A DNA stretch of 64,000 nucleotides, taken from the IMG/VR virus record IMGVR_UViG_3300049491_001058. One strand, written 5' to 3'. This document shows positions 1,253 through 39,492 of the stretch, in pieces. The notes under the pieces are model-generated. The model did not search any database. It saw only the letters and a list, made by a program, of their open reading frames with translations, and was not told the DNA's origin. Positions within the stretch are counted from its first letter, which is position 1, and the number at the start of each line of letters is the position of its first letter. A program made the position numbers and the translations under genes. This DNA comes from an uncultured virus (IMG/VR IMGVR_UViG_3300049491_001058) (Duplodnaviria > Heunggongvirae > Uroviricota > Caudoviricetes).

Positions 1253-2257
1253 ATGATGGCACAACTTTTATCCTCCCCAACATTTTGGAATAAACTTGCG
1301 GAGGTAGATTCATCGCCGCCAACAAGTGAACAGAACTCTGTGGTTTTGCGAGAGTTTGTCACTCAGCTAAAAATAGCTGGCCTGTCGGATGGACAGATTT
1401 ACGGGATTGTTCTTGGAGCGGCAGAAGGTTTCGCGAAGATAGCGGACAATGAGACTGCGCCAGCTACCCCTCCAGCAGTTACCCCTCCGGCAGCTACAAA
1501 ACCAGTTACTCCTCCGGTGGATCCTGTCGCGCCAGCTCCAGCCGTATCAGCCTTCAAGGGAATAAAGGCACCAGGGCTCTTGCCTGGATTGCCTTCGTTG
1601 GCGCCTAGTGCCAGAAACGTGGATATATTAAAGGGGTTAGCCAATCCAGGAGAACAGGCCTTGTTGGCTGTTTCTCCGTTGGTTTCTGCAGCCAAGAACC
1701 TTATGCCTGACTCTGTTAAGGCGACCTATGACACGCCGGCCCTTGTCAGAACAATTAACGATACTGGAGATAAAGAGCATCCCATGATGTCCTCTATCGT
1801 GGATCAGTTTTTTGATAAAAACAAGCCTCTGGATCAGGACCAGAAAGCAGAAATGTACAAGAACTTCCATGAAGGTCACTATCTTGACGCGGCCAAGCAA
1901 TTTGGAGAGAAATTCATGGCAAATGATACAGTCAAGAGCATCAGCAATTATGCTGTTCCAGCCTTGGCTACTATAGCCGCTTCTCGTCTCGCTGGCGCTG
2001 GATGGGGAGGCTCATTGGCTGCTGGCGCAGGCGCAGGGTACGCTTATGGCAATAATGTCGGCGGACTCAAGGACTGGATGAATACACCTTCCGCTCCTCC
2101 GGTAACTCCTCCACCAACTACAACAGCAGCTCCTTCCCCCCAACAAAAAGAAGCTCCTGCCGCAGGAGCCGGTCCAGCTACTGGCGCAGAGAAGACAAAG
2201 AAGGACACGGTGGCTCACGCCAACTCAATCAGAATTCCGACAAGTAATTTTGCTTGA
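1253..2257 (+). CDS. Putative virion-internal protein (K-x-A motifs, glycine zipper, Pro-rich linkers)
   Basis: Start moved from 1064 to ATG 1253 (after the terminator and a TTGCGC-18-TATATT promoter); KLA, KIA, KIA motifs; GAGWGGSLAAGAGAGYAYG helix. Confidence 0.65.
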   Translation: MMAQLLSSPTFWNKLAEVDSSPPTSEQNSVVLREFVTQLKIAGLSDGQIYGIVLGAAEGFAKIADNETAPATPPAVTPPAATKPVTPPVDPVAPAPAVSAFKGIKAPGLLPGLPSLAPSARNVDILKGLANPGEQALLAVSPLVSAAKNLMPDSVKATYDTPALVRTINDTGDKEHPMMSSIVDQFFDKNKPLDQDQKAEMYKNFHEGHYLDAAKQFGEKFMANDTVKSISNYAVPALATIAASRLAGAGWGGSLAAGAGAGYAYGNNVGGLKDWMNTPSAPPVTPPPTTTAAPSPQQKEAPAAGAGPATGAEKTKKDTVAHANSIRIPTSNFA

Positions 2258-2264
2258 TCCCAAA

Positions 2265-3842
2265 ATGAATAAGCTCCAGAAAATCGCCGACCTTTTAGCT
2301 ATGGTCGCCCAGTCTGCTCGCCTCCCCGGAGAGGTGGGGGAGATTGCGCATGCTGCAACCGGCCTATCCGCTAACGCCGCCTCAATAAAGAGCACGACTG
2401 CTGGAGAAAGAGTGATGGATAAAGTCGTAAACACGACATCAGGAGTATCGTCCGCTGTTGATACCGCAAACGAGGGGATGACCCGGATTAAACCACTCGC
2501 TACGCTGGCTGGAAAGTTTGCCCCTAGAGCCGCTGCTGGAATAGGAATGGTTGCTGAAAAAATTTCACCGCCAGTATGGGCAGCGTCGACAGCTTATCAG
2601 GCAGGTAAGGTGCTCAAGCATCCGGGAGCAGAGGTGAATGCTTTCATTGCTGCGACAAACAATCAGCCCTGGTGGAGACGAGCAATCGAAGGGATCAGCA
2701 ATCCTCCGGCAGCGATCGCCGCGCCCATGAAAATAATCAAAGAGATGGGTCACGCCACTGACGAACACAATCGAACTGCGCCTATGCGTTATCAAGACGG
2801 AACGACGGTCGAAGGCTTTGATGCAGCCAATCGCCATGCTCGTGAAGTCGAGATAGAGCAGATGAAGACCAACGGCACGTATCCGTTTGGAAAGAAAGCC
2901 GCCTTCCCCCAAGAGCTATTCATGGGCGAGGACAAAGCTCCGACAATGGTTGAACAAAAGACTCACCGCAGTGAGTTTGGTGGAGTGCCTCTTCATCAGG
3001 GACAAAAGAACTGGAACTTTGCTTTGGTTCAAGACGGCCAAGATAAAATCCTTCGCCTGAGAAATGGATCGAGAGCCATGTCGCTTCGTTTTGATGACGA
3101 CATGACTCGGGAAGACTTCGGTTCCGGCAAACCTATCTCAATGACCCGGCTGGGCGACGTGACCGACAAGGAGTTTCTGTCTGGAGACAGCGTGTTCTCT
3201 AAAGGAGTGTTCCAAATTCACAAATCCTCTCCAGGATCTATCCATGCCACAATGCAGGATGGAAAGAATGGACTGACCATGATGTTCGAAGAGGGTAAGG
3301 GCGGGAAGTGGACAATGGTTCCAAAGCCAAAAAACAAACTTAGTCAGGTGGCTGGAAAGTTTGTTCGACAGGTGAGTGAGGGGAAGACGGCGGAGCTTGT
3401 TGCTCACATAGCTGGACCATCTGGATCAGGTAAAACAACATTACTGAATAAAATAAAAGATCGTTTTCCTAACTACGCTACGGCCGATATTGATGAGTTT
3501 GATGAAAACGCAGAAAGGAGCCTTGGATACAATAGAATAAGTAAAGATGATTATTCGGATGAGATGTTGAGCAATCTTCATAATGAAAAACAAAGACTGC
3601 TTAATGAGTTTTTAGACAAGAATTCAGGGCAAAAAGTTATACTCGCTGGCCACCATACAGAGGCTGGACATGTGCTTGATGTTCCCTCTCAATACAAATT
3701 CATGCTTTCCACAAGCCCTTCAGTAAGCGCAATGAGAGCTTTCAATAGAGAGAAGGGTATGCACCCAGGGAACGAAAGGCGGTTGAGTGAAATTCCTGGC
3801 GATATACAGCAGGGTGTAGAGGTAAAAAAAAGAGCTACTTAG
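2265..3842 (+). CDS. Polyvalent protein, N-terminal part, ending in a P-loop kinase domain
   Basis: Walker A motif HIAGPSGSGKTT directly after KTA; the ORF ends just after an A8 run that would join it to the next ORF. Confidence 0.75.
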   Translation: MNKLQKIADLLAMVAQSARLPGEVGEIAHAATGLSANAASIKSTTAGERVMDKVVNTTSGVSSAVDTANEGMTRIKPLATLAGKFAPRAAAGIGMVAEKISPPVWAASTAYQAGKVLKHPGAEVNAFIAATNNQPWWRRAIEGISNPPAAIAAPMKIIKEMGHATDEHNRTAPMRYQDGTTVEGFDAANRHAREVEIEQMKTNGTYPFGKKAAFPQELFMGEDKAPTMVEQKTHRSEFGGVPLHQGQKNWNFALVQDGQDKILRLRNGSRAMSLRFDDDMTREDFGSGKPISMTRLGDVTDKEFLSGDSVFSKGVFQIHKSSPGSIHATMQDGKNGLTMMFEEGKGGKWTMVPKPKNKLSQVAGKFVRQVSEGKTAELVAHIAGPSGSGKTTLLNKIKDRFPNYATADIDEFDENAERSLGYNRISKDDYSDEMLSNLHNEKQRLLNEFLDKNSGQKVILAGHHTEAGHVLDVPSQYKFMLSTSPSVSAMRAFNREKGMHPGNERRLSEIPGDIQQGVEVKKRAT

Positions 3843-3876
3843 TCTCGGGTATCAAAAAATTAAAGCTAAAAGCGTT

Positions 3877-6800
3877 TTGCAACAACTGATTGACCTTAAT
3901 CAGGCAAATAAAGGAAAGATGGCAGAAAAGACAAAGGTCTATGCTGTCGATCTTGATGGAACCCTCGCGCACAGCTACGAAGGAGAGTTCGACAAAAATA
4001 AGATAGGCAAACCGGTTTCATTGATGCGCAAGCTTGTTCGTCAGTGGATGCGCAAGGGACATGAGGTTCGTATTTTTACAGCTCGAGCCGCCAATCCAAA
4101 GAATATTCCACCAATCAAGGAGTGGTTGAAGGAGCACGGAATGGAAGGCCTTGAAGTGACAAACAAAAAGACTCCCGATATCACGACTTTTTACGACGAT
4201 CGGGCCGTGAGAGTGGAGAGGGATACGGGTAAACTAGCGTCGCTGTCGGATCATTATAAAGCAGCGGAATTAACCTACTCTCCAGAGAATGGGTTGATTC
4301 TTGATGTGGACGACATGTATGGAAACCCCACAGCCAATAGGGCTTTAGATATCAAAAGATTTAACGATCTATCCCCAAATCAGTTTACGGTCGACTCTCA
4401 CGGAGGGTCTGGATACACCAACGGCCGTGGCGGGGCGGTTGAAAATATGTTTTCCGGCCATAAAGAGAACGAAAGTCTTCGATTTATAGAAAGACCGTCC
4501 GATCGGTTTGGTCCAGCTCGTAGCGACGTGATCTATTCCCCATCACGCCTTGCGCCGATGCAATTCAACCCAGAGGCTATAAAAAACAGGCCAGGGATTG
4601 ATCAGGTTTTATCCTTAGCCTGTAACAGACAAGGGACTTGCACTCCTCAAGTGTTTGAGAGGATGCTTGGACATCCTTTAAAGCGCGTATCGATGGTTCC
4701 TCCAGGGCATTACGGATCAGGAGGGTCATCGCTCTCTAATTACGTAACCGCAGCAATGCACTCGGTTTTTGGCATAAAGGATACGGCTCCGATACATAAT
4801 TATGTAAAAGAAAATGGCCAATGGGGAGATACCGGACTTTACAAAACAAAAATTGATAGACGGATCGATGTGGCGCATCAAGCCGTGTCCCCCGTCACTT
4901 CAGTAATCTTAAACCCATCTGGATCTTTCAATAACGTGGCTCACATGGTTAACTCCGTGTTACCTAAAAGAATGCAGATTCCAGACATGAAGCCTAGCGC
5001 AACTCCGCTTGTCGAGCCTAAAACGTCATTGCCTGCCCCAGACAGAGGGGCATCTTATCGTCAAATTATGAACGCCCCTAAATCGGCCTCTCTTCTTAAC
5101 TCCGCACCGGCAAGGTTTGTCGCAGTAGGTGCAGGCATTCTTGGCATGAGAGCCCTCAAAGAGCTTCCAGACCCATACGCAGATATCGCTACGAGTACAG
5201 CCTTTGCTGGCCTCGGTGGATGGACCGGATACGAGGTTGGAAAAATGGTTCAGCACTTTAGACACCTAAAGGAAATGAACGCTGCCGAGAAGGAACACCA
5301 AGAGAAACAAGGCAAATTGGCCTCGCTGCTGGATCATTATAAGGTGGGCGAAGATCGGGAGAAAAAGAAAAAAAATAAATCCACAGCAAGCATCTTTAGA
5401 GACACCTTGCCCTGGGTTGCCGGTGCGAGTCTTGCTGGCGCAGGAGCCTCCGAAGCTGTTCGTCGCGGAATCTTTACTCCCGAGCTTCAGGACGACATGT
5501 CTGACTTTACTCGCAAGCGGGAGCTTGACAAAATTTTCAAGCCATACGCTGCCCTCCCAAAAGACGAACAGGCCGTACAAGGCATTGTGGATTACGCAAT
5601 TCAAGGAAACAGATTGCTAAATAAGAGAATGCTTTGGGGAGCACTTTCTCCGACTGAATTAATTAAGTCTGTTCGTAGCGCCCCGTGGTTGGCTGAAAAG
5701 GATCGATGGACTCCAAACTCTCAGCAACACTACGACGCCTTTGAGTCTGGTGCTCTTCCTGGGGTTGTTCGGGTTCTTGGAGAAATCTCTCACGGATGGG
5801 ATAAGGCTGATGGAAGCGGCAGTCTGCCACCTAGCTCTAATTCGGTTCGAGAGGCTTTGCGTCATTCCGTAAATGATCTCTCGGGAATTAATTATGTAGA
5901 TACATCTGGAGGCCACCCAGCGAGCAAGACAGACAGGGAGTGGTTGTTTCCAGCCGTAGGGATGGCTTCCCAGCTTTCTCCTGAAAAGCAGATGCAGGTA
6001 ATGAGATCTCTTGGCCCAAAACTAAAGCAGGAGATTGTCTCCTCAGGTCCTGACGGAGAAAAGCAGTGGGGTAACCTGATCGATGGTCTTCAAAACGCTC
6101 GAGAAGTTGTTTACGGCGGATACGGGAAACTGACAAGCGCTTTGCAAAAAGCGAATGAGCTGTGGGGGACAACAAATACAGGCCTTGCGGCTACAGGCCT
6201 TACGGCGCTAGGTGGATATGGTGCCTGGAAGTTCTTAGACAGCCTTGCAAAAAAGAAAAAAGAGAGGGCTCGTCAAGAAGTGACAGAAAAGACAGCCAAG
6301 GCTCCATCATATCTTTCTATTTTGCGTGACAGGTTTTCTGAGGCACGCAAGGATGTCCATCCATCTCCGACAGAGGCTCAGAAATCTAAAGGCAATTACC
6401 CAATGGCCCACGTTTGGATGCAAGGGCTCGACATCACGATCGAGACCCCAAAGGGCGGAGTGCGCTCCGGCACAAACAAAGAGGGTAAATCCTGGAAGGT
6501 AGTTTTGAAAAATGATTATGGATACATCCGCAATCACAAAAGAAGCCAAGCTGACGGTGATCACGTAGATGTGTTTGTTGGCCCTTATCCCGCGTCAGAG
6601 ATCGTTTACGTTGTAGATCAAAACGTCGGAGGAAAGTTCGACGAGCACAAATGTATGTGCGGCTTCTTCACTGAGAAAGAGGCCAAGGATGCATATCTTG
6701 CAAACTTCGATGAAAACTGGAAAGGATTCAGGTCCATCACGGCCCTCACTATGCGCCAGTTCAAAAAGTGGCTTGAGGATGGAGACACATCGAGTCCGCT

Positions 6801-7443
6801 GGCTGGCCAGAAATATTCCGACTTCCTGAAGACGGCGAACGAGATGGATCCTCATCCAATCCTTTCGTCCATTACGCATCATTATTTAAATAATAACCCA
6901 GCTATCGCCACGGCCGTCGGGGCAATTAAGGGCGGACTTGTAGGGGCGGCTATCCATTCGTTGCGAGCCACCAAGAAAGAGATCCTTGACGAAAGAAAGA
7001 AAATCCCGACGTGGGGAGATGATATTGGTAACGGCTTACTGATCGGCTCCGGCACGGGGCTGGCTACATGGGCCATCCCTCATGCTATGGAGGCTTATTA
7101 CGGATCGAAGCAGGGGCACATTATGGATACAGTTTTTGCTCCAATAAATGCTCCTGTCTCAGTTGCTCCTTTTCTTGGTGCCGGATATGGAGCCATAGCT
7201 GGCGGAGCGAAAGGTCTATTTAATAAGGTGAAGAAGAAGCTCACTGGAGAAACGGAAGAACGTTATGAGCTTGGAGACAGTATCATCGACGGAGCTGTGA
7301 ATGGAAGCCAACAAGCTTTGGTGGGATCCGTCAGTCTCAGTCAGGATCAAGCAGCTAGAAGAGCAATGAAAATGGCTCCGCCGGCTCCGCGAAAAATAAA
7401 TAATCGCCAACCATTGATTGGAAACAAAACTCACCTACGATAA
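3877..7443 (+). CDS. Polyvalent protein, C-terminal part: HAD phosphatase, possible caspase-like domain, membrane helices, InPase (inorganic pyrophosphatase-like) domain
   Basis: HAD motifs YAVDLDGTLA / IFTAR / FYDDRA; InPase signature PTEAQK-GNY...IETPKG...YGYI...DGDHVDVFVGP...VVDQ...FDEHK. Confidence 0.8.
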   Translation: MQQLIDLNQANKGKMAEKTKVYAVDLDGTLAHSYEGEFDKNKIGKPVSLMRKLVRQWMRKGHEVRIFTARAANPKNIPPIKEWLKEHGMEGLEVTNKKTPDITTFYDDRAVRVERDTGKLASLSDHYKAAELTYSPENGLILDVDDMYGNPTANRALDIKRFNDLSPNQFTVDSHGGSGYTNGRGGAVENMFSGHKENESLRFIERPSDRFGPARSDVIYSPSRLAPMQFNPEAIKNRPGIDQVLSLACNRQGTCTPQVFERMLGHPLKRVSMVPPGHYGSGGSSLSNYVTAAMHSVFGIKDTAPIHNYVKENGQWGDTGLYKTKIDRRIDVAHQAVSPVTSVILNPSGSFNNVAHMVNSVLPKRMQIPDMKPSATPLVEPKTSLPAPDRGASYRQIMNAPKSASLLNSAPARFVAVGAGILGMRALKELPDPYADIATSTAFAGLGGWTGYEVGKMVQHFRHLKEMNAAEKEHQEKQGKLASLLDHYKVGEDREKKKKNKSTASIFRDTLPWVAGASLAGAGASEAVRRGIFTPELQDDMSDFTRKRELDKIFKPYAALPKDEQAVQGIVDYAIQGNRLLNKRMLWGALSPTELIKSVRSAPWLAEKDRWTPNSQQHYDAFESGALPGVVRVLGEISHGWDKADGSGSLPPSSNSVREALRHSVNDLSGINYVDTSGGHPASKTDREWLFPAVGMASQLSPEKQMQVMRSLGPKLKQEIVSSGPDGEKQWGNLIDGLQNAREVVYGGYGKLTSALQKANELWGTTNTGLAATGLTALGGYGAWKFLDSLAKKKKERARQEVTEKTAKAPSYLSILRDRFSEARKDVHPSPTEAQKSKGNYPMAHVWMQGLDITIETPKGGVRSGTNKEGKSWKVVLKNDYGYIRNHKRSQADGDHVDVFVGPYPASEIVYVVDQNVGGKFDEHKCMCGFFTEKEAKDAYLANFDENWKGFRSITALTMRQFKKWLEDGDTSSPLAGQKYSDFLKTANEMDPHPILSSITHHYLNNNPAIATAVGAIKGGLVGAAIHSLRATKKEILDERKKIPTWGDDIGNGLLIGSGTGLATWAIPHAMEAYYGSKQGHIMDTVFAPINAPVSVAPFLGAGYGAIAGGAKGLFNKVKKKLTGETEERYELGDSIIDGAVNGSQQALVGSVSLSQDQAARRAMKMAPPAPRKINNRQPLIGNKTHLR

Positions 7444-9720: not shown

Positions 9721-11199
9721 ATGATCACACTCCCGAGTGGCGTAAGATTGAGGGAGTTCTATAGTCCCACCGAAACTCGCGACGAGATTTTTCGCCGGGT
9801 CCAGGAGGGGTTTGAGAAACGCTTTCCGATGGAAAATGATTCCATTAGGATGGAGCTAGCGAACATTGGTTACGACGAGAAAAAGAAGAGGTTCTCGCTT
9901 GATGATCACCAGAATGCAGTTCTTTCTGGCGGTAAATTATCGACCCCTCTAAGAGCCAAAGTCAGACTGATCGACAAGAAGTTCAACGTGCCTCTGGACG
10001 AAAGGGATGTTGTTCTGGCGAATGTCCCATATATGACAGATGACGGTACCTTTGTAATCAAAGGGAACGCTTATTCTGTGAATAATCAGGCCCGCTTAAG
10101 GGCTGGAGTTTTTGCTAGAACAAAGGACTCAGGAGAGATGGAGTCCCATATCAATACGAAGTCCGGGACCGGCCCATCTATGCGTCTGTTTATGGAGCCA
10201 GAGACAGGCGTCTTTCGTGCATCAATCGACAAGTCGAATATCAAACTGTATCCAGTGCTCAGTGCCCTTGGCGTGACGGACGACCAACTGAAAGAAGCTT
10301 GGGGAGACAAAATTCTTGAGCAAAACCGCAAGGCCTGGGACAGGGGCGCTTTCAATAAGTTCTACGGCAAGATGCTTCGGCACCGAGCCAACCTGGAAGC
10401 CTCTGATGAGGAAAAGAAACAGCAGATATTGGATAGGCTCTCCATTGCACAACTCGACCCTGAAGTGACGACCCGAACCCTTGGTCGCCCCCACTCAAAC
10501 CTCTCGATGGACATGTTTCTCGATGCTTCCCGAAAGTTACTGAGAGTAAACCGAGGAGAGGAAGAGGAGGACGACCGCGATCATCCAGCCAACCGAACGG
10601 TTCACTCTGTTGACGATTTCCTTTCTGATCGTGTGTCGAAGGATGCAGGCAAACTTGGCAAGACACTTTTGTATCGAGCAACCTATGACCGATCATTGAA
10701 ACAGCTGCGCCCCGGTTATTTCACACCGCAGCTTGAAGGACTGATCATTGGTAACCAACTAAGCCAGCTTGTTTCTGGAACAAACCCTGTTGAACTGTAT
10801 GACCAACACAAGCGAGTGATCCAATTGGGTGAAGGCGGAGTTGGGTCCATGGATGGAATACCTATGTCATCTAGAAATCTTCATGCAGGTCACTTAGGTA
10901 TGATTGACCCAATCCGTTCCAGCGAATCAAAAGCTATTGGGGTTGATCAGCGCTTTACTGTCTCAGCAATGAAGGGCGATGACAATCTGGTCTACTATCC
11001 GTTGAGAAATCGGCGGACTGGACAAATTGAATACATGAACTCTGTCCAAGTAGCGGATAAGGCAGTAGCTTTTCCAAAAGCAACCTCCTTGGAGGGTTTT
11101 AAAACAATGATGCCGGCAGTACAGCCTGTGCCCCAGGCGCAAACAGGTGTAGTGCCGCCAATCGAACCGCCCAAAGCAACCGATCTTTTAAATCTATGA
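9721..11199 (+). CDS. rpoB: RNA polymerase beta subunit, N-terminal part
   Basis: VPYMTDDGTFVIKG...NQARLRAGVF, DDRDHPANR, SQLVSGTNP...KRVIQLGEGG and RNLHAGHLGMIDPIRSSE match conserved beta blocks. Confidence 0.92.
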   Translation: MITLPSGVRLREFYSPTETRDEIFRRVQEGFEKRFPMENDSIRMELANIGYDEKKKRFSLDDHQNAVLSGGKLSTPLRAKVRLIDKKFNVPLDERDVVLANVPYMTDDGTFVIKGNAYSVNNQARLRAGVFARTKDSGEMESHINTKSGTGPSMRLFMEPETGVFRASIDKSNIKLYPVLSALGVTDDQLKEAWGDKILEQNRKAWDRGAFNKFYGKMLRHRANLEASDEEKKQQILDRLSIAQLDPEVTTRTLGRPHSNLSMDMFLDASRKLLRVNRGEEEEDDRDHPANRTVHSVDDFLSDRVSKDAGKLGKTLLYRATYDRSLKQLRPGYFTPQLEGLIIGNQLSQLVSGTNPVELYDQHKRVIQLGEGGVGSMDGIPMSSRNLHAGHLGMIDPIRSSESKAIGVDQRFTVSAMKGDDNLVYYPLRNRRTGQIEYMNSVQVADKAVAFPKATSLEGFKTMMPAVQPVPQAQTGVVPPIEPPKATDLLNL

Positions 11200-28730: not shown

Positions 28731-29392
28731 TGAGCGAACCAGACAATTCATTTCCGTACGTCAATAGCCTTGTGTCCGCTTTGGCCTCTGGCGCAATCGG
28801 CGCAGGAGCCGCAAGAGCCATGACCCATCGAAAAGAAGATGAGTCAGATCAGCAATACGACAGACGAGTTTCTCTAAACACTTCCACTGGAGCTCTCGGT
28901 GGTGGCGCTCTGGGAGCAAGCTTACCTCTTCTATATCGGTTCGTCACTCCTGAGAAAAAGGAGCTGATCGATCGCTTCATGGATCATCCAATAGATACAG
29001 CACTCGGCACAGGGTTTGACAAAACGGTTGAGACGCTTGGGGCTGGCGGACTGATCGTTGGCGGCGCTGGCGCTGTTGCGGGAAAAGCCATTGGAGCTGC
29101 AGCAAATTCGTCTTCGGATAAAGCGATAGCAAAAACAGACGCACACAGGGCCTCAGCAGAGGCAAGCCAGATTCACGCCAATGCTCACGGGACTCCTGCT
29201 GATATAACAAAAGCGAATGCTCTTTTTAATGAATCGGTAAAAGCTCAACAAGCGGCCATAGAGCACTCCAATAACTTGAAGACCAAATGGAGATACGGAG
29301 CACATGGGGGTAAGCAGTATCATGGCACAGCAGGAGCCGTCCTCGGGACCGCATTGGGGATAGTTGGAGAAAAATACATGGATAAGCTTTAA
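28730..29392 (+). CDS. Glycine-zipper membrane protein
   Basis: Several GxxxG hydrophobic helices. Confidence 0.65.
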   Translation: MSEPDNSFPYVNSLVSALASGAIGAGAARAMTHRKEDESDQQYDRRVSLNTSTGALGGGALGASLPLLYRFVTPEKKELIDRFMDHPIDTALGTGFDKTVETLGAGGLIVGGAGAVAGKAIGAAANSSSDKAIAKTDAHRASAEASQIHANAHGTPADITKANALFNESVKAQQAAIEHSNNLKTKWRYGAHGGKQYHGTAGAVLGTALGIVGEKYMDKL

Positions 29393-29395: not shown

Positions 29396-31876
29396 ATGTA
29401 CCAGTTCAGATACATGCCCAAGCTGATCCTTGCCGGATCATTCAATCACGATGACGAGTGGGGGGTCGCCACAATTGTTGACGATCCTGACGTTCTCAAG
29501 AAGTCTGCGTCATCAAAGGTTGTGGACGAGTGGGGCGAAATTGAACCAAAGAAAAACGCTTCACTCATTCATCTAGTCGCTCTTGGAGCGCATGAGGCTA
29601 CAGGCACGAACCAAAATGGCGACTCTTTTACCGAGGAGTTCTTGAAAAAAGCTCACCCAACATTCAAGAAGCATGGTGCTCTTTTTCGCGACCACAAAGC
29701 GAAGGACTTTCGAAAGAAAGAAGGAGACGTAGAGAAGACGGCCTACAACGACGACATGCGCAGAGCTGAACTTCTTGTGTCAGCAGATCACGATAAATGT
29801 GCCGATTGGCTTGGCGAAATAGAGAAAGGGAAGCGTGTAGATTTTTCGATGGGCTTCGACTGCGTGGCCGACCACTGTAGTATCTGTGATAACAGAGCAC
29901 CAACAAGAAAAGATTACTGTTTTGTCCCAGGCACAGAGATAACGATTGGCGATGGATCAGTTAAACCTATTGAGCTGATTGAAGTAGGGGACGCTGTAAT
30001 GGACGCAGGAGGCAATCCAACGAAAGTTGTTCAGCTCTTTAAGCATAATGTTGATGAGGACTTGGTGGTGCTTAAAGGATCCTTGTTTCAGCAGGAGCTG
30101 ATTGTAACGGACAACCATCCAGTGTTGGCTCTTCCTGCTGAAATGGGCAGATTTTACAATATAGATAACGCCCTTTATGGCACAAAGATAAATAAAGACC
30201 CTCTTTGCGAGGTGGAGGGCTTTGAGTCTTTTCTTTGTCCACCGGCTTTCGTTGATGCTGGCAAGATGAGGCAAAAGGACTTTATTTTCGCCCCTGTCTT
30301 ACAGATTGATGACTCCGTTTGGGACGGATTTTGTGACGAAGAGGAGGCGTGGATTTACGGGCTCTTTACTGCTGAAGGATCTTTTGCCAAAGATAAGGAT
30401 GGCGCTCGTGTATCGATTCAGTTCTCTCTTCATCAAAAAGAGACATGGATTATCGAGAGGCTTCAGTCTTACTTTAAAAAAAGATATGATCGAGATGTTA
30501 AAACCTACAGCAGAGAAACCTCAAAAGGCATAAGTGTCCGAATTCATAGCCGAGAGGCCGCCCTTGTGTTTTTTGAGGTGTGTGGTGAATACGCCACCCA
30601 AAAGACAATAGATGAGAGGTTTTTCCATGCACCTGAAGCAATAAGGAGAAGCTTACTGGAAGGTATTTATGCTGGCGATGGCCATATTTACTTTGAGAGA
30701 GGCTCTGACAAGCTGCCTTACTCTAGGATCAATTCTGCGTCTAAAAACCTAATTCGTCAACTTTGGCACCTAACTTCTCAAATGGGGTGCTTTAACTATG
30801 TGGGTCATGCTGTCCAGGTTGGAGGTCCTACAAACAGAACAAATAAGAGTGACTCGTGGTATTTGGCTTCCAGTTTTCTTGGAGACGACAAAGCTCAATC
30901 AGGAGGCAAAGGGTGGTTTGGCGGTATGGCTGTCGGGCATCTTCGAGAGGTGTCTCGAGTTCGGCATTGTGGACCTGTGTTTAATTTTGAAACAGAGTCT
31001 CACACTTATGTGGCTAACGGTATAGCTGTTCATAATTGCGACCATGTCAAAAAAGGAGCTAAGGCTCCATACGGCATGGGCAAGATCCTTCCTGATGGAA
31101 GAAAGTGTTTTGTGTTCAACCCGGAAGGGGTTTTCAATGACATCTCCAAAGTCGGCACAGGCGCTGACATGATTGCTCAGAACCTACGCAAGGTCGCTGG
31201 CGTCGATGGCGAAGAACTGATTGGCGGAGCGGAGTTAATGGAAATCGTTTTTCCTGACGTCCTGCTTGAGAAGTTTGCAGCTAAGATGGCCCTGGCTCAG
31301 AAGATGTCGCGGATGGAAAAGATTATTCCAGTGACGACAATTCGGAATAATAAGACTGAAAAACTGATCAGCAGTAAAACAGCAAACAAGCTCCGAGCAA
31401 TGCCCGCAGGAATGATGTTTGGCGAATTGGCTAAAGCTGGTTGTCTTCTTCCGTTGAGAGATTTCTTTTCCTTGGTCATGGGGGATATCTCTCCCGAAAT
31501 GGAGTCAATTATTGATGAGTCCGAAAAGGTCGCGAGCCTTGCCCTTACTCATGCAGTTTCATCCGATAAGGTGCTGCAGGATGTATGTTCGAATAAGAGT
31601 TACGAATGCTCCAAGGTAGCGTTGTCGTCTCTAAATTCGGATGAATTCGGTGATCTATCATTTAACTTTGGACTCGACGAGGACTTGGTTAACGAGAGGC
31701 TTTTGAAACAAGCCATGACAGGCAGCCGGTCTATTGCTCCGTGCTCGTTATCCGAAGTCTCTCTTCCGGCGCTTAAAATGCTGGAAGAGTATGCAGCATA
31801 TAAACTTGCTGTTTTGGAAACAGGTGTAATTAGCTCTGAGGAAAACTCAGCTAGACTTGTTGCCCGTATCAGCTAA
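29396..31876 (+). CDS. Prohead (capsid maturation) protease, intein-containing
   Basis: NQNGDSF...LFRDH...FSMGFDC...CSIC...C-D-H...FNDISKV...GAD pattern typical of phage prohead proteases; lies upstream of scaffold-like genes and the MCP. Confidence 0.75.
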   Translation: MYQFRYMPKLILAGSFNHDDEWGVATIVDDPDVLKKSASSKVVDEWGEIEPKKNASLIHLVALGAHEATGTNQNGDSFTEEFLKKAHPTFKKHGALFRDHKAKDFRKKEGDVEKTAYNDDMRRAELLVSADHDKCADWLGEIEKGKRVDFSMGFDCVADHCSICDNRAPTRKDYCFVPGTEITIGDGSVKPIELIEVGDAVMDAGGNPTKVVQLFKHNVDEDLVVLKGSLFQQELIVTDNHPVLALPAEMGRFYNIDNALYGTKINKDPLCEVEGFESFLCPPAFVDAGKMRQKDFIFAPVLQIDDSVWDGFCDEEEAWIYGLFTAEGSFAKDKDGARVSIQFSLHQKETWIIERLQSYFKKRYDRDVKTYSRETSKGISVRIHSREAALVFFEVCGEYATQKTIDERFFHAPEAIRRSLLEGIYAGDGHIYFERGSDKLPYSRINSASKNLIRQLWHLTSQMGCFNYVGHAVQVGGPTNRTNKSDSWYLASSFLGDDKAQSGGKGWFGGMAVGHLREVSRVRHCGPVFNFETESHTYVANGIAVHNCDHVKKGAKAPYGMGKILPDGRKCFVFNPEGVFNDISKVGTGADMIAQNLRKVAGVDGEELIGGAELMEIVFPDVLLEKFAAKMALAQKMSRMEKIIPVTTIRNNKTEKLISSKTANKLRAMPAGMMFGELAKAGCLLPLRDFFSLVMGDISPEMESIIDESEKVASLALTHAVSSDKVLQDVCSNKSYECSKVALSSLNSDEFGDLSFNFGLDEDLVNERLLKQAMTGSRSIAPCSLSEVSLPALKMLEEYAAYKLAVLETGVISSEENSARLVARIS
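29918..31036 (+). mobile_element. Intein with LAGLIDADG homing endonuclease (373 aa) in the protease
   Basis: Starts CFVPGTEI, block B VTDNHP, endonuclease blocks YGLFTAEGS and LEGIYAGDG, ends HTYVANGIAVHN|C. Confidence 0.93.
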
Positions 31877-31921: not shown

Positions 31922-33859
31922 ATGAAGAAAACATCCAGCTTCGGCGACCTGCAAGATCGCCTCAGAAAACACGTTGAATCGGTCAAGAAGGCTTCCGCAA
32001 GTCTGGAAGAAGGTCAGATCATCGAAAAAGAAAAGAGTGTCTCTCTTCCATCCAGCGACAGCGAAGTGAAGGATATTCTTCCGAGCGCTGGCGTTCCCGC
32101 TGAGCCCAAAAAAGATCTAACTAATACCGGCGTCGCCTCTGGCGAATCAATGCCGGGAGTTTCTCTCAATCCTCCTCAAAAAGAGAAGGAGCGGAAGGAG
32201 GTTTCTCCAGAAGCAAAACTCGCCGGAGTTAATTCCACTGTCACGGAACTACAAAACCGATTGAGTCAAACCCTCAAGCAGGCGGCAGAAGCTATGATGG
32301 CTGAAGACGAAGGTCTTCCTGTCGAAGGCGCAAAGGCAGACACTACCGGAGCGACCCCCTCAATTCAAGGAGCTCAGGGCGTTTCTCAAACAGAAATTGC
32401 TGCAACTGGCGAACCCCCAGCTTCACAAGGCCCCAAGGAAGTTTCGCCTGAGGTAAAACTCGCTGCGGCTGATATCGATTTGATGAGCCAGAAAATGGCT
32501 CAATACACTCAGGACGTGATGACTGGTCGAGCCATGGCGCACGAAATGATTGCTCGCCTGGAAGAAATGACTTCGCCACAAGATCCAGCAAAACTGGCCG
32601 CAGCTGTGAGAGACAATACAATTGTCACCACAATTCGAGCTATGGTTGACTCCAGCCTTGAGGCAGGAATCATTTCCCACAAACAGGCCGACGCTATGTT
32701 TGCGATGGCCGGTTTCCAGCTGAACCCCTTGCACGCGGCAATCAATGAGGTGCAGCAAAAAATCGCAGCACTTGACCAAAGCGAACTGACCCTGAAACAA
32801 AAGGTCGCGTTCGTCACCAAATGTGCGGAGCCCGAAGAGGCAATGGCTGCCGCTGGTGGTCAAGCCCCTATTGATCCCGCTCAGTTGCAGGCCGCAATCG
32901 GCGAACTCTTGAGTCAACTTCAGGCGGCCGTTGAGTCCGGCCAGATTACTGAGGAGCAAGCTTTGCAAATTCTCGAAGAGCAAGGCATTCCTGTCAACGA
33001 GTTGATTGGTGGTGATGGCGTGGTTGATGGTGCTCAAGCCCCTGAAGGCGGCGGCGCTCCTCCTTCTATTGGCGGCCAGCAAGCTGAAATTGGTGAAGCC
33101 GCTCCGACCCCTCCTGAGGCTCCATCGCCGGAAACGGCTCCAGAAACACCAGCGGAAGAAGCTGCTGAAAAACACGCAGCTCGATTGGTTGGCAAGGTGG
33201 CCGCGCTGCTAGGCGTGAAGATTGCTGCCGGCCTAGAATTTTCTGCAGAGCAAAAGGGTGATTACAACAAGGCTCTCGCCCAGAGCAATGTGAATAAGGA
33301 AACAATTGGAATGCCTTCTGCAGAAAAAGGGCCAACCATTGGGCCTGTTCCTAAGACAGTCGAGGCTCCAAGCCTTAAGGGTGACGGTGTCCGGTCGAAC
33401 GCTCCCTTGTCTCCCGGTGCCCAAGGAACCCTCGATTCCTTAAGTAGCCTAACTCCAAAGCCCGATCTTGGCGGAAAGGGTGTGATGAAACCGACTCCAA
33501 CCCCTGGCTTCCTTGAGTCGCTCGGGATCAGCCCCGCAGCTCTGGGTCTTGGTCTAGGAGGTCTCGGCCTCGCTGGCTACGCAGCTCATAGCGCAATGTC
33601 TGATGACGAAGAAGAGGATCGACGCAAGCGCAAACACGCCGAAGTAGATCCTGCCGCAATGGCCGCTGATCCAGCCATGGCAGCTGGCGGAGATCCAGCG
33701 ATGATGGCTGAAGCTCCTGCTGGTGCCGAACAAGCCCCATCACTTGAAGAAGTTTTGGCAGAAATCGAGCAAGCGGTTCAAGCTGGCTTGATTACAATGG
33801 AACAGGCGCAGCAAATCGTCCAGGTCCTTTCGTCCGGAGGAGCGGCCCCAGCCCAGTAA
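31922..33859 (+). CDS. Putative scaffold/core protein
   Basis: Acidic, Ala/Pro/Glu-rich, about 14 K-x-A motifs, between protease and MCP. Confidence 0.6.
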   Translation: MKKTSSFGDLQDRLRKHVESVKKASASLEEGQIIEKEKSVSLPSSDSEVKDILPSAGVPAEPKKDLTNTGVASGESMPGVSLNPPQKEKERKEVSPEAKLAGVNSTVTELQNRLSQTLKQAAEAMMAEDEGLPVEGAKADTTGATPSIQGAQGVSQTEIAATGEPPASQGPKEVSPEVKLAAADIDLMSQKMAQYTQDVMTGRAMAHEMIARLEEMTSPQDPAKLAAAVRDNTIVTTIRAMVDSSLEAGIISHKQADAMFAMAGFQLNPLHAAINEVQQKIAALDQSELTLKQKVAFVTKCAEPEEAMAAAGGQAPIDPAQLQAAIGELLSQLQAAVESGQITEEQALQILEEQGIPVNELIGGDGVVDGAQAPEGGGAPPSIGGQQAEIGEAAPTPPEAPSPETAPETPAEEAAEKHAARLVGKVAALLGVKIAAGLEFSAEQKGDYNKALAQSNVNKETIGMPSAEKGPTIGPVPKTVEAPSLKGDGVRSNAPLSPGAQGTLDSLSSLTPKPDLGGKGVMKPTPTPGFLESLGISPAALGLGLGGLGLAGYAAHSAMSDDEEEDRRKRKHAEVDPAAMAADPAMAAGGDPAMMAEAPAGAEQAPSLEEVLAEIEQAVQAGLITMEQAQQIVQVLSSGGAAPAQ

Positions 33860-33868: not shown

Positions 33869-34270
33869 ATGAAACCTGAAATCGTAAAACAAATCATTCG
33901 CGACTCCGCCGCCTTGCTGGAAAAAACAGCAGAGCTTTCGGAACAAGCTGAGCAGGTCCCCGAGCTCAAGCAAAAGGTGGCAACTCTTGCTTCCCAAAAC
34001 GCCTCGATGCTGAAAAGCGCAAATGATCTATCAAGTTCGCTTGCGGCTAGAGTTGAGAAGTTTGCGGACCGTCTTGTTGAGCACGGAACCTTAAACAAGG
34101 AACACAAGACCGCCTTTGTTGAAGCCGTGCGACAAGATCCAACTCAGATCGTCGATGTAATGGAGAAACTGGCAAGCCAGTCATCCATTCAGGAAATCGG
34201 TCAAGGAGGTAAAGCGGCTAGCTCAGAGAAAACTACCGATCCTATTGTTCAGTTCGCAATGGGTGAGTAA
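33869..34270 (+). CDS. Small scaffold-like coiled-coil protein
   Basis: 133 aa; 7 of 12 lysines fall in K-x-A motifs. Confidence 0.6.
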   Translation: MKPEIVKQIIRDSAALLEKTAELSEQAEQVPELKQKVATLASQNASMLKSANDLSSSLAARVEKFADRLVEHGTLNKEHKTAFVEAVRQDPTQIVDVMEKLASQSSIQEIGQGGKAASSEKTTDPIVQFAMGE

Positions 34271-35067: not shown

Positions 35068-36060
35068 ATGAAAGTTGATCCATCCACGCTGAATAAGCAA
35101 TTCATGTCCAAGATCGCTTCTGGCGACAAGCAAGGAGCTATGGACGCCGCCACCGAGTTTACTCGTCTGACTCTTCGTGAAGAAGGCCTTCTCCGTAAGG
35201 TGCTTCCTCCAAAGCCGATCAGTTACTCGGACCTTGACAAGCAGATCGACAGCGATCACCCCGTCAAGATCATGGACAAGGAAGTGAGCCAGCCTCTTTC
35301 CGTGTCCGTGCCGTTTGGCTCGCTCCCTGCGAACCAATACATCAAGGGCGCTCGTTACCGTGTTGATTTTGCTCGTCTCGTGAGCAAAAACTACACCAAG
35401 GACACAGCCGAGCTGAATGCCTATGACTATGATATCCGCGAAGTCTTCAAGGACAACGCCATCAAGGATCACATGACGGGCGAAGATGTTCCCTTCTTCC
35501 AGCTCGTCAACAGCCTCATTCAGTCCGATCCCGACAACGGCATCGCTGTAGGTAACGTTGCGTCCGCCATGACCGGCAAGGTGCAGTTCCATGACTATAC
35601 TGACTCGACCAAGAACCCTCGTGGCTACACGGGCTTCAGTCGTGACAGTGTTGTTGATGCGTTCACTATCATGACCAAGGGCTTCGGCAGCGGCGCCAAC
35701 TCCACTCCTATTCGTCTCCAGACGGATCTCTGTGTGATGAATGCCAATACTGGCCTCGAATTTGTCAAACTGCTGCCCACCGAAATTGGTGAGCGCATTG
35801 CTGACAAGCTAGCGACAGATGGTTTGGTTGAGGACACATTCTTTGGTCGTCGTTTCTTGTTTACCATCAAGGACGACATCATTGAGGACGGCGCCATGTA
35901 TATGTTCGCCAAGCCCCAGTTCCTTGGCGTACTGCTGGAACTGGAACAACCCGTTCTTTTCCTCGAGAACCGAGCATACATGATGGAGTTCTTCATCTAC
36001 AGCATGCTTGGCTCATCGATCGGAAATGCGTTCGGTCTTGCCAAGGCAAAGTACTTCTAA
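35068..36060 (+). CDS. Major capsid protein (HK97 fold, putative)
   Basis: 330 aa; FTRLTLREEGLLRKVLPP N-terminal block; strong codon bias; position after protease/scaffold/decoration genes; followed by a terminator. Confidence 0.8.
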   Translation: MKVDPSTLNKQFMSKIASGDKQGAMDAATEFTRLTLREEGLLRKVLPPKPISYSDLDKQIDSDHPVKIMDKEVSQPLSVSVPFGSLPANQYIKGARYRVDFARLVSKNYTKDTAELNAYDYDIREVFKDNAIKDHMTGEDVPFFQLVNSLIQSDPDNGIAVGNVASAMTGKVQFHDYTDSTKNPRGYTGFSRDSVVDAFTIMTKGFGSGANSTPIRLQTDLCVMNANTGLEFVKLLPTEIGERIADKLATDGLVEDTFFGRRFLFTIKDDIIEDGAMYMFAKPQFLGVLLELEQPVLFLENRAYMMEFFIYSMLGSSIGNAFGLAKAKYF

Positions 36061-36135: not shown

Positions 36136-36173
36136 ATATTTGATTTTGTCGCCTTTGTTACACAAGTAGGAAA

Positions 36174-36841: not shown

Positions 36842-36888
36842 TTCCTTTTGACTCTTTCTCGCCATTTGATACCTTTACTCCTACCATA

Positions 36889-37614: not shown

Positions 37615-37645
37615 TTTCGGTGGTGTAGTTTGATGATGTGATGAG

Positions 37646-37684
37646 TGGGGCAGTGGAGGAAACTCCACTGCCCCATCTTGTTTT
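37646..37684 (+). terminator. Intrinsic terminator
   Basis: tggggcagtggag-gaaa-ctccactgcccca followed by tcttgtttt. Confidence 0.8.
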
Positions 37685-37725
37685 AGCTGGCGTTCGCAAT
37701 TGATCAGTCTATGTTTTGAAACAGT

Positions 37726-39492
37726 ATGAGCCCTCTTTTTATTAAACACTTTGTGAAGTCTGCCGGGTTGATGAGTTCAATAGGGAAGAGCTTGATAACT
37801 CCAAGTGCGTGGAGTCCAAGAGCTCAGGCGGTCGGTAGCTATGCCCTTAGTTCTGGAATTGCTGAAGGCGGAAACTACATGATGGAAGAAATGGGGTCAG
37901 ATGCAGGAACCCCAGGCAGAATTTTGGCCCATGTCGCAGCACACGCATTAATTGGCGGTCCGTTGAGTACTTTAAGAGGCAGACAGCAAGCTTTTTATGC
38001 GCGTAATCCGGTAACCAGGGCTCAAGAGTGGTCGTCCCCAAAATTTTTTAAGAACGTAGCTCTAAAATCAACACTTATACCTGCCGGAGACATTCTTATT
38101 AATGCGGCAAAAGGCTCTAGTTCAGCCAAGGATATGCTTGGCACCTCATCTCAAGCAGTATCCACTCTTTCTGAGAACATCACGGGAATGAAGCCAGGAG
38201 AGACCCCTTATGATGCCGCAGCAAGGAGAATTGTTAATTCAATTTTTATGCCAGAAGCTGGGTCATCTGTTGGCGCTACGACACCTGGGTCTGGCAATAT
38301 TGTTCCAGAAGCTGATTTAGCTTCTCAGAAAGCTATTCAAGACTTTATAACAAAACATCCAGAACAAAAAGACAAGGTTCTTTCGTTTAAATTTTTGAAT
38401 GATATTCCTGCCTCAGTTGCCAAGCAGGTCTCTGAAAGAGACATTGGAAACTCAGTGGGCGCCTTCGGCAAGGTGATGAAAAATACGGAAGATGCATCCA
38501 AGAATGTAGCAAATGCCTCGGGAAACGTAGCAGACACCTCGTCTCCTCTTGGTGGTCTAGGGCAAAGATTGGACTCGATGGCCGATTTAATGAAGCCAAT
38601 CAGCAACTCATTCAAGATGGTGCAGGACAACGCCAAGCCTATTGCAATCGGCCTGGGAACTACTGCTGCCGCTGTTGGTGGATACAATCTCCTTCGCGAT
38701 TATCTAAACTACAATCGAATCAAGGCTGAGCGCGAAGCAAAGGATAAGAGTCGGAAGGTTGGCGCAAATGTGTGGGGGAACATCATCGGCACTCTTGCTG
38801 GCGGCGGTCTTGCCTACAATAATGCAGTCAACACTGGGCTCTCAGGAAGTGAGGCCATTTTGCCTGTGCTGATTGGGGGTATAAGCGGCGGAGCTGCGGG
38901 AGGCGGTTATGTAAAAGGCCGCGCCAACGGTATGTCTAAGTGGGAAGCGACCAAAGCAATGAAGGGACCTATTGCCATGACTCTCGCGAATGACATGTAT
39001 GGAGCTCCATTATGGGCAAACATGAAGGGAAATATTCAGGCACAAAAAGATAACCACTTGGCTGCCATCAAATCAAATTCTCCTGCTGGCGAATGGTCCA
39101 ACAAAGATATCGCCCTCGGCGTCGGCGGCGGAGCCCTCACTCTCGGAGCCCTGGCGGCACTATATCAAGGGACTCGTGCCGCAAAAAGCGTTGCCGATGG
39201 ACAGCCATTAGTGAATGCGACAACTACAAACTCTGTCTTCACTGGCGCTGGTGGTCCAGAGAATCCAAACGTTGGCGGCAAAATGTATGTCACCCTCCCA
39301 ACAAAGAACCCTGGCGACAAAGAAACAACAATCGAGCTTCCGCTTGAAAATATGCCACTTTCTAGCGCCCTGGTAAACAAACTGCGCCGAGATACAAAGC
39401 GTCGCCTTCGCACGGAAAGCGATTACCGCACTGTGAGAAAAGACGCTCCAGAAAATTCCGATCGGATCAAACAACTGATGGCTGTTCGATAG
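37726..39492 (+). CDS. Gly/Ala-rich putative virion protein with membrane helices
   Basis: 588 aa; VKSA|G near the N-terminus; several glycine zippers. Confidence 0.6.
   Translation: MSPLFIKHFVKSAGLMSSIGKSLITPSAWSPRAQAVGSYALSSGIAEGGNYMMEEMGSDAGTPGRILAHVAAHALIGGPLSTLRGRQQAFYARNPVTRAQEWSSPKFFKNVALKSTLIPAGDILINAAKGSSSAKDMLGTSSQAVSTLSENITGMKPGETPYDAAARRIVNSIFMPEAGSSVGATTPGSGNIVPEADLASQKAIQDFITKHPEQKDKVLSFKFLNDIPASVAKQVSERDIGNSVGAFGKVMKNTEDASKNVANASGNVADTSSPLGGLGQRLDSMADLMKPISNSFKMVQDNAKPIAIGLGTTAAAVGGYNLLRDYLNYNRIKAEREAKDKSRKVGANVWGNIIGTLAGGGLAYNNAVNTGLSGSEAILPVLIGGISGGAAGGGYVKGRANGMSKWEATKAMKGPIAMTLANDMYGAPLWANMKGNIQAQKDNHLAAIKSNSPAGEWSNKDIALGVGGGALTLGALAALYQGTRAAKSVADGQPLVNATTTNSVFTGAGGPENPNVGGKMYVTLPTKNPGDKETTIELPLENMPLSSALVNKLRRDTKRRLRTESDYRTVRKDAPENSDRIKQLMAVR

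Follow-up and report, generated by a model that had tools for sequence, protein, structure and literature searches.

The 64,000-nt stretch of DNA recorded as IMG/VR IMGVR_UViG_3300049491_001058, from an uncultured virus of the Caudoviricetes (hereafter the window), encodes a head module, tail genes and a multisubunit RNA polymerase split over several open reading frames (ORFs), with every long ORF on the + strand (Table 1). Within the head module the gene for a putative maturation protease lies beside scaffold and capsid genes and is followed by an Ala-rich scaffold-like ORF, a 133-aa ORF and the major capsid protein (MCP), an order shared with Salmonella phage Arash, Vibrio phage D69 and loci recovered from metagenomes. 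The syntenic blocks of Arash and D69 are ~30% identical to the window, and the window MCP is 29.9% identical to Arash gp226, annotated as a major capsid protein, and shares 28.5% identity with a protein found in Vibrio phages D69, D181 and D148. RNA polymerase subunits rank near the top in abundance among the proteins detected in Arash virions, according to the accessible text of the Arash study (PMC10585845), and together with the MCP likeness this points to a large phage of the Arash/D69 type that carries its polymerase in the particle. Here we describe a dense recurrence of the tripeptide K-x-A (lysine, any residue, alanine) in five proteins of this head module, including the protease, and set out why the phage's own protease probably cuts after the alanine of K-x-A, removing propeptides and chopping up scaffold proteins.

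We translated 52 + strand ORFs and compared the K-x-A count of each protein with 500 shuffles of the same protein. Enrichment is confined to five ORFs, all between 22798 and 34270 (each p ≤ 0.006), which carry ~two to five times more K-x-A than chance, whereas the remaining 47 of 52 return p ≥ 0.086 and the 39 ORFs outside the head block together hold 84 K-x-A against 88.2 expected. When all 1600 residue pairs with gaps of 0–3 were scored against composition, K-x-A ranked first of 1600 in the seven-ORF head block (62 observed versus 28.1 expected, P 2.4e-8), and R-x-A, A-x-K, K-A, K-x-S, K-x-G and E-x-A were at or below expectation there. Motifs of the kinds recognized by other capsid proteases behave differently in the same block: among Glu-type motifs, L-x-E occurs 34 times versus 24.7 (P 0.04, uncorrected), I-x-E 18 versus 14.5, S-x-E 32 versus 26.0, A-x-E 19 versus 32.2 and G-x-E 12 versus 24.0, and among herpes-type motifs, V-x-A occurs 17 times versus 22.8, L-x-A 25 versus 33.3 and I-x-A 17 versus 19.4. 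As a positive control, the identical screen of T4 gp67, gp68, gp21 and gp22 ranks I-x-E first and L-x-E second; these are the cleavage motifs of T4 gp21, so the screen recovers the rule of a prohead protease from sequence alone.

The K-x-A signal resides in the protein and not in the DNA. Lys and Ala codons at the block sites are used as in the rest of the same genes (p 0.61 and 0.20), and the pattern AAR-NNN-GCN occurs 61 times in frame in the block genes versus 11 and 6 times in the two alternative frames and 5–12 times in those of the opposite strand. We rejected a DNA-level motif on the grounds that codon choice is ordinary and the pattern is frequent only in the reading frame. A general N-terminal tag on other virion proteins was also rejected, as 10 of 46 ORFs outside the block carry K-x-A within their first 40 residues and 9.0 would be expected. 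The sequence-only reading that had drawn attention to the motif described it as pervasive over positions 1253–39492 and proposed a count of observed versus expected sites per ORF; that count places an excess beyond composition in the five head ORFs and leaves most of the range at background. Its tallies for 33869–34270 (7 K-x-A among 12 Lys), 31922–33859 (about 14; 14 counted) and 22798–26304 (more than 10; 16 counted) were right, and the tripeptides KVA, KFA, KMA, KTA, KVA, KVA, KQA and KLA that it read in the protease tail are all present, at residues 599–803. ORF 27339–28730, missing from its list, is enriched as well.

Table 1. Features of the window, with K-x-A counts (observed versus expected) and candidate cut sites (arrow, putative scissile bond)
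Feature	Coordinates	Strand	K-x-A	Details
1168-aa internal head protein, predicted substrate	22798-26304	+	16 vs 7.1, p 0.002	
Gly-rich insert with membrane-helix-like stretches	25033-25764	+		~residues 746-989 of the 1168-aa protein
463-aa predicted substrate	27339-28730	+	10 vs 3.7, p 0.006	all 10 sites in residues 9-285
220-aa ORF directly upstream of protease	28730-29392	+	0 vs 2.3	
Putative maturation protease, whole ORF	29396-31876	+	14 vs 5.2	
Protease N-extein	29396-29917	+	5 vs 1.7	residues 1-174
Candidate N-terminal propeptide-type site KSA↓S	29501-29509	+		residues 36-38
Intein, predicted	29918-31036	+		residues 175-547 (373 aa); Cys1, Hint, LAGLIDADG, C-terminal His-Asn then Cys+1
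Protease C-extein	31037-31876	+	9 vs 2.2, p 0.001	end of fold, release-type site, helical tail
Candidate release-type site LRKVA↓G	31190-31198	+		residues 599-601
645-aa Ala-rich scaffold-like protein	31922-33859	+	14 vs 6.2, p 0.002	
133-aa core or scaffold-like protein	33869-34270	+	7 vs 1.5, p 0.002	7/12 Lys in K-x-A
Major capsid protein	35068-36060	+		candidate N-terminal site SKIA↓S, residues 15-17, nt 35110-35118
K-S-A of ORF 37726-39492	37756-37764	+		residues 11-13; unsupported as a cleavage site
Multisubunit RNA polymerase genes, split	9721-11199, 11475-15725, 20890-22785	+		
Polyvalent protein with InPase domain	3877-7443	+		

The block sites also share their flanks. With Lys numbered P3 and Ala P1, the block sites of the window, Arash and D69 are enriched in Leu, Met or Ile at P5, where Val is also preferred, and in Ser or Ala at P1′; Glu at P4 is enriched mainly in Arash and D69, in which Gly is preferred at P6 as well. 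None of these preferences is seen at the window K-x-A sites outside the block. In the window block, Ser directly follows K-x-A 17 times versus 5.4 expected and Ala 13 times versus 6.6, and the density of K-x-A-(S/A) is 9.27 per 1000 aa inside the block versus 0.86 outside (~eleven times). A matrix built from the flanks only and trained on 196 sites of relatives gave the 61 window block sites a median score of 0.30 and the 91 window non-block sites a median of -2.0 (Mann-Whitney P 2.6e-6).

The same tripeptide leads the screen in relatives of the window. K-x-A ranks first of 1600 in Arash gp218–gp225 (44 versus 19.7 expected), carried by gp220, gp222, gp223 and gp225, and first of 1600 in the syntenic block of D69 (50 versus 20.7), carried by ORFs 268, 270, 271 and 273. 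Across whole genomes, the head block supplies the top three and four of the top five of 189 Arash ORFs and four of the top five of 201 D69 ORFs, and outside it K-x-A is at or below expectation in both phages. Syntenic ORFs are enriched likewise in six metagenome loci with protease homologues (L003, L007 and L008, at most 4.1 kb long, were left out of nine), of which L009, L010 and L011 share the same counts and are effectively one phage. Pairwise comparisons within alignments of four substrate families find the Lys and Ala of K-x-A retained in 53% and 59% of cases, versus 29% and 33% for other Lys and Ala (Fisher P 6e-6 and 4e-8). A further protein of ~285 aa lies 13–25 kb from the head block in both cultured phages, as D69 0296 (L002 40873–41724), the most enriched of the D69 ORFs, and its homologue Arash 174466–175335 (L021 10466–11335; 44.6% identity). 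It holds 8–10 (L/M/F)-x-K-x-A sites spaced roughly every 20–47 residues, and tblastn finds no match to it in the window.

ORF 29396–31876 most likely encodes a capsid-maturation serine protease, an assignment based on the agreement of fold, profile, gene position and an invariant His and Ser. The PHROG profile phrog_18299, 'head maturation protease', matches the intein-free homologue P0002 (E 1e-7), Arash gp222 (2e-6) and D69 270 (7e-7), and neighbours in a protein atlas are Peptidase_S77, S78 and S80 clusters at 0.90–0.92, which we take as a lead only. An AF2 model of P0002 has a mean predicted local distance difference test (pLDDT) score of 72.5, with a core of residues 51–221 at pLDDT 64–88, and its catalytic domain is predicted to adopt the assemblin/gp21 fold. 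In VIA-align the top 16 matches are all capsid proteases, aligned over model residues 51–227. T4 gp21 (5jbl_B) comes first, with 125 of 164 residues aligned at a root-mean-square deviation (rmsd) of 3.1 and a Z of 8.1, a borderline value that unrelated folds can reach according to the tool's note. Seven herpesvirus proteases follow at Z 7.5–5.2, including those of varicella-zoster virus (1vzv, Z 7.5, rmsd 3.1, 113 aligned), pseudorabies virus, herpes simplex virus 1, Epstein–Barr virus, Kaposi's sarcoma-associated herpesvirus and human cytomegalovirus.

The protease family is large, with 3753 clusters at 50% identity matching at E ≤ 1e-3, and we analysed 143 representatives, none more than 50% identical to another (seven of 150 listed were excluded as already analysed). 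His98 is kept in 141/141 and Ser149 in 142/142 representatives, the His preceding the Ser by ~51 residues; in the window both candidate catalytic residues lie in the N-extein, in RDHK and FSMGF, together with a Cys-rich CxxxxCxxC motif. C154, C159, C162 and C173 (intein-free numbering; 29840–29917 and 31037–31045) make up a zinc-ribbon-like insert after the candidate catalytic Ser, in which three of the four Cys are kept in 141–142 of 142–143 representatives and which is common to gp19 of Bacillus phage G. A scan of viral contigs with the protease alignment gave 111 pattern matches, none of them confirmed.

An element with the features of an intein and homing endonuclease sits immediately before the fourth Cys of this insert, and we predict that it splices. 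It runs from CFVPGTE to VHN, followed by Cys, and scores 36.5 bits against Pfam LAGLIDADG_3 (cut-off 22.5) and 30.5 bits against Hom_end_hint, just below the cut-off of 32.1; the Hint families fall short of their cut-offs. Intein-free homologues of 454–462 aa (n=12) align contiguously across the Tyr/Cys junction. The intein holds no K-x-A (1.4 expected) and the two exteins together hold 14. As the protease is interrupted by the intein, maturation would depend on protein splicing. Among the family representatives (P0021–P0163), 32 of 143 are at least 700 aa long, and breaks in the profile match near positions 73–74, 156–163 and 177 of the long ones point to no fewer than three distinct insertion points around the candidate catalytic motifs. 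Another LAGLIDADG element (Pfam LAGLIDADG_2, E 1e-19) occupies ~residues 599–799 of the RNA polymerase beta/beta′ ORF 11475–15725, where it separates the Rpb2-like part from the Rpb1-like part; it, too, is probably an intein. Also amid the virion and polymerase genes lies a 254-aa ORF with a PAS_3 domain (16161–16925; E 8e-16).

The protease family itself is rich in the motif. The 143 representatives contain 1713 K-x-A versus 527.7 expected (3.25-fold), 142 of them lie above expectation, and Ser directly after K-x-A is 3.1-fold enriched. Two sites are kept across the family: site 34, near the N-terminus and followed by Ser, Ala or Gly, in 123/137 representatives, and site 225 of P0002 (LRKVA then Ser, Gly or Ala, equivalent to window residues 599–601) in 113/141. 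Ser and Gly account for most replacements of Ala at the conserved sites, consistent with an S1 pocket of small size. Both sites fall in disordered segments of the model (residues 1–37 and 222–253), one at each edge of the fold, and the structural match to capsid proteases stops at residue 227; the two sites thus appear to flank the catalytic domain in the manner of a propeptide site on one side and a herpes-type release site on the other. The window C-extein carries seven more K-x-A in its helical tail, beyond LRKVA↓G. The reference homologue has nine other post-fold sites: two are each retained by roughly half of the representatives (74/135 and 67/139) and the remaining seven persist in 0–12 of 27–131, yet in 130 of 141 tails K-x-A reaches at least double its expected number. 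A site number that holds steady while positions turn over is what redundant cut sites would be expected to show; a structural motif would not.

The four other enriched ORFs are predicted substrates with distinct site layouts. In the 1168-aa protein the sites fall in residues 133–427 (11), 688–743 (3) and 971–987 (2), with a median position at 0.25 of the length versus 0.46 for all Lys. By BLAST only residues 22–126 and 1061–1123 match Arash gp218, and both ends are thus homologous. The Gly-rich insert in this protein starts just after WVKEA↓Y and ends at KKA↓S / KSA↓R; in a three-way alignment the L011 homologue is without the insert and its WVKMA runs directly into the C-terminal domain (BLAST blocks 412–745 = 271–605 and 1000–1167 = 607–772), and the counterpart cassette of L005 has no downstream K-x-A. 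Gly-rich, glycine-zipper-like hydrophobic stretches occur both in this insert and at 33500–33560, near the C-terminal third of the 645-aa protein, and may be membrane-active parts of ejected proteins. ORF 27339–28730 ends in a 178-residue C-terminal piece that contains no K-x-A; its N-terminus is homologous to Arash gp220 (BLAST E 8e-8), and its homologues are enriched in L005 (13 versus 5.0), L011 (14 versus 3.9) and L010 (14 versus 3.8).

Downstream of the protease, three sites of the 645-aa protein (K224/A226, K280/A282 and K300/A302) never vary in an alignment of 5 sequences whose mean column identity is 41%, and homologues of this protein in L005, L006 and L011 are enriched. A helical unit, AVESGQITEEQALQILEE, occurs twice in this protein and apparently up to three times in the L006 homologue, and may be a capsid-binding module. 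The 133-aa protein, if fully cut, would yield fragments of 21, 17, 13, 15, 16, 20, 15 and 16 residues; the coefficient of variation (CV) of its site spacing is 0.15 versus 0.81 for random placement, and none of 20,000 random placements is as even. Its homologues hold 7, 7 and 4 sites, with just 4 of 21 positions shared. The 220-aa ORF 28730–29392 contains 16.8% Ala and 6.4% Lys; pooled with its L005, L011 and L006 homologues it holds 4 K-x-A versus 11.3 expected (Poisson P 0.012), an avoidance that would make sense for a head protein needing to escape the protease. Pfam searches with the predicted fragments of 22798–26304 and 27339–28730 and with ORFs 26304–27320 and 28730–29392 returned nothing meaningful.

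In the window outside the five enriched ORFs the motif is at background. The sequence-only reading had pointed to K-x-A near the N-termini of the MCP (SKIA↓SG, residue 15) and of ORF 37726–39492 (VKSA↓G, residue 11); both are present, and neither protein exceeds chance (3 versus 1.7 expected for the whole MCP and 2 versus 5.1 for ORF 37726–39492). The MCP site is kept in 4/4 closer relatives and reads K-I-D or K-L-D in Arash and D69, and among homologues of ORF 37726–39492 only that of L006 has a comparable N-terminal SKIA↓G. A structure model of the MCP, built from 5 sequences, was unusable (mean pLDDT 33.6). The polyvalent protein 3877–7443 also has background density (10 versus 8.6 expected). 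It carries an InPase domain, and its domains, as defined by hidden Markov models (HMMs), span residues 9–115 (matches annotated as phosphoheptose isomerase and polynucleotide kinase) and 833–967. The earlier statement that its K-x-A fall exactly at domain boundaries was too strong: among the sites at residues 14, 119, 128, 402, 480, 805, 934, 937, 985 and 1165, four (119, 128, 805 and 985) lie 4–28 residues outside HMM-defined edges, three (14, 934 and 937) lie inside domains and the other three are in unannotated sequence.

We likewise find the suggestion that any domain bracketed by K-x-A can be loaded into the capsid as a plug-in to be overdrawn, for it is based on one insert and confuses cutting with loading; in T4, loading is done by a separate N-terminal targeting sequence, as described in the accessible text of PMC9026906. 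A related idea, in which K-x-A serves across the family as modular cut punctuation that allows cargo domains of head proteins to be swapped or inserted, is conceivable, though we regard it as doubtful. If it held, a protein that already enters the prohead would bring along a new module flanked by two of its K-x-A sites, and cleavage would then release that module. The cassette at residues 746–989 of 22798–26304 would be one example, and its Gly-rich segments could reach the host; D69 0296 and Arash 174466–175335 would be further clients, the polyvalent protein 3877–7443 might be another, and removal of the intein, which the protease needs, would time the onset of maturation.

Among characterized capsid proteases, T4 gp21 (5jbl) is the best structural match, and its short P3-x-P1 motif is likewise frequent in core and scaffold proteins and in neighbours of the protease gene, with further sites in the internal proteins. 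In T4, cleavage follows Glu, breaks scaffold proteins down into peptides and strips off N-terminal propeptides, according to the accessible text of PMC9026906. In contrast, P1 here would be Ala and not Glu, and P3 is Lys and not Leu or Ile; the window protease further differs in its four-Cys insert, ~230-residue tail and intein. Alignment A1 scored a probability of 0.2% (E 0.37) against T4 gp21 by hhalign. We rejected membership of the T4 gp21 family proper (Peptidase_S77), as there is no gp21 homology and no Pfam S77 match, and Glu motifs are not clearly enriched.

Like the window phage as inferred here, phiKZ and SPN3US are large and carry a multisubunit RNA polymerase along with many internal proteins in their particles. 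Their enzymes, gp175 and gp245, cut after Glu, at motifs that are not enriched in the window block. In the accessible text of PMC10052503, A-x-E is the motif after which SPN3US gp245 cuts, with Ser preferred at P1′; the enzyme also takes off N-terminal propeptides at several copies of the motif and trims its own C-terminus, and the phiKZ rule is given as S/A-x-E in that of PMC9026906. Unlike in these phages, where MCP and portal lose long propeptides, the window MCP would lose at most 17 residues, at a site that is a candidate only.

Herpesvirus assemblins match the model fold over residues 51–227 (Z 7.5 to 5.2) and share with it a protease fused to a scaffold-like tail, a release-type site after the fold and another site ~20 residues from the C-terminus (residue 431 of 454, kept in 67/139). 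They cut between Ala and Ser or Thr, a pattern that the putative cut in the window would resemble. The pseudorabies assemblin sites YLQA-T and VQA-S, with cleavage after Ala, were predicted by herpesvirus alignment, according to the accessible text of PMC4498786. The assemblin rule of Val, Leu or Ile at P3 does not hold in the window, where P3 is Lys and the hydrophobic preference lies at P5 instead. The window also has dozens of sites per protein set and not two or three, shows no sequence similarity to assemblins, and its candidate His/Ser active site is one to which we assign no third residue. A true homologue is gp19 of Bacillus phage G (hhalign 99.1%, E 4e-19, 160 columns), which shares RDH/VDH, both SMG motifs, CSICGN and an aligned LRKVA/LEKVA-S at the end of the domain; its gene lies between portal and MCP, and it carries 8 K-x-A versus 2.6 expected. 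It differs in its length of 300 aa, its lack of an intein and the weak enrichment of its neighbours. Phage G gp19 is named a head maturation protease in PMC12484599, and we found no cleavage rule for it in the accessible text of that paper.

From the enrichment and its restriction to a few head genes, together with the flanks common to the sites, their conservation pattern and the fold of the protease, we infer the following course of cutting and fragment fate. The recognition site would have K-x-A as its core and, in fuller form, would read (L/M/I/V/F)-x-K-x-A followed by Ser or Ala. The protease of ORF 29396–31876 would become whole only after its intein splices out, would co-assemble into the prohead and, inside the assembled prohead, would cut on the C-terminal side of Ala, so that Lys occupies P3, Ala P1 and Ser or Ala P1′; this bond is suggested by the Ser/Ala preference at P1′, the replacement of Ala by Ser or Gly and the P3-x-P1 layout common to related proteases. 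It would free itself by cutting KSA↓S (residue 38) and the release-type site LRKVA↓G (residue 601), and would then chop its own helical tail. The 133-aa protein would be reduced to 13–21-residue peptides and the 645-aa protein fragmented, with short peptides able to leave the shell, and multiply cut N-terminal propeptides would be removed from 27339–28730 and 22798–26304, whose C-terminal domains would stay in the head. The earlier proposal that the protease at 29396 recognizes K-x-A and processes scaffold and internal proteins thus gains support from the comparative tests for recognition, with cleavage itself deduced.

Several observations weigh against cleavage by this protease. No cleavage products have been observed for the window phage or its relatives, and the putative scissile bond is placed by analogy and by the P1/P1′ pattern alone. 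Virion mass spectrometry of Arash covered 80–100% of gp220–gp225, which is not suggestive of full removal, as given in the accessible text of PMC10585845; the same preparation contained 116 of 272 proteins, including helicases and reductases, and with so broad a content the coverage says little either way. Enrichment is not uniform among relatives: the L004 homologue (1159–3306) of the 645-aa scaffold-like protein (14 versus 9.6, p 0.086) and the L005 homologue (2987–6460) of the 1168-aa protein (8 versus 6.1) are not significant, and the pooled head block of phage G is weakly enriched (20 versus 11.0, P 0.009, rank 7/1600). The pairwise conservation and family counts do not allow for phylogenetic dependence among the sequences. 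Some sites lie inside the folded core (window residues 84–136) or in tail helices, where access is not obvious. For the protease assignment, the Z of the gp21 match is borderline, as given above; Pfam at E ≤ 1 has no match for Arash gp222, D69 270 or either window extein, NCBIfam has no protease match for P0002, Arash gp222 or phage G gp19, a PDB sequence search with alignment A1 finds no protease family, and Foldseek against PDB returns nothing at E ≤ 0.001, with gp21 and herpes proteases among the top weak matches.

Other accounts of the motif have to explain the same data. K-x-A might be a docking or targeting signal that binds the inner capsid, the portal or the protease and whose number is selected without any cutting there. 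The regular spacing in the 133-aa protein (CV 0.15), the similar recurrence in the D69 0296/Arash 174466 protein, the location of many protease tail sites within predicted helices and the separation of propeptide targeting from cutting in T4 (accessible text of PMC9026906) would all suit such a role. We nonetheless consider it improbable, since the two family-wide sites lie in disordered linkers at the fold edges, the position of a propeptide or release site, since Ser or Ala at P1′ and replacement of Ala by Ser or Gly typify a scissile bond whose P1 residue enters a small S1 pocket, and since the T4 screen recovers true cut sites. That K-x-A has no function and is a by-product of composition or of a helical, Ala/Lys-rich scaffold architecture is the least credible account, and we regard it as very improbable. 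The enriched proteins are indeed rich in Ala, at up to 16%, the single available model is mostly helical, and an i/i+2 pattern could reflect amphipathic helices. We rejected composition or helix bias as the source, however, because shuffles that keep composition fail to reproduce the excess, because the control motifs R-x-A, A-x-K, E-x-A, K-A, K-x-S and K-x-G are not enriched, because the Ala/Lys-rich neighbour 28730–29392 carries no K-x-A, and because the flanks are specific and the best-conserved sites lie in disordered linkers.

It is also unlikely that the motif is cut at another bond, for example after Lys, or by a host or other phage protease. The capsid protein of HK97 is cut after Lys. 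In the window family Lys is, along with Ala, the most constrained residue, no result places the scissile bond, and the protease is assigned by fold and profile similarity, all of which leave room for this alternative. Against another enzyme, the enrichment tracks the protease family, including its own tails (130/141), through hosts as different as Salmonella, Vibrio and a Bacillus-group bacterium, which makes a host enzyme unlikely; against another bond, the rules of proteases with the same fold, A-x-E, S/A-x-E and V/L-Q-A, share a P3-x-P1 layout with K-x-A↓. Cleavage after the alanine of K-x-A by the phage's own protease is thus the account that we favor.

The type of capsid protease and the strategy are both known, and from the comparisons made here the substrate rule appears to be new, across a large and mostly uncultured phage family. 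We found no literature report of a K-x-A capsid-protease rule, wider searches on prohead proteases returned only work on T4, phiKZ/SPN3US and P1, and the terms protease and cleavage have 0 occurrences in the accessible text of the Arash paper (PMC10585845). The mapped multi-substrate prohead proteases of T4, phiKZ, 201phi2-1 and SPN3US all cut after Glu, as far as the accessible texts on them go. If correct, the K-x-A rule, with Lys at P3 and the cut after Ala, would stand apart from these. It would resemble the herpesvirus P1/P1′ pattern, and with a fold between T4 gp21 and the assemblins it would connect the substrate rules of both lineages. The motif could also serve as a candidate cut site for protein-delivery designs like those built on the T4 targeting sequence. 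The family includes the cultured phages Arash, Vibrio D69, D181 and D148 and phage G, in which the prediction is directly testable, and in its uncultured members the motif would predict from sequence the processed head proteins, their mature ends and the disposable scaffold.

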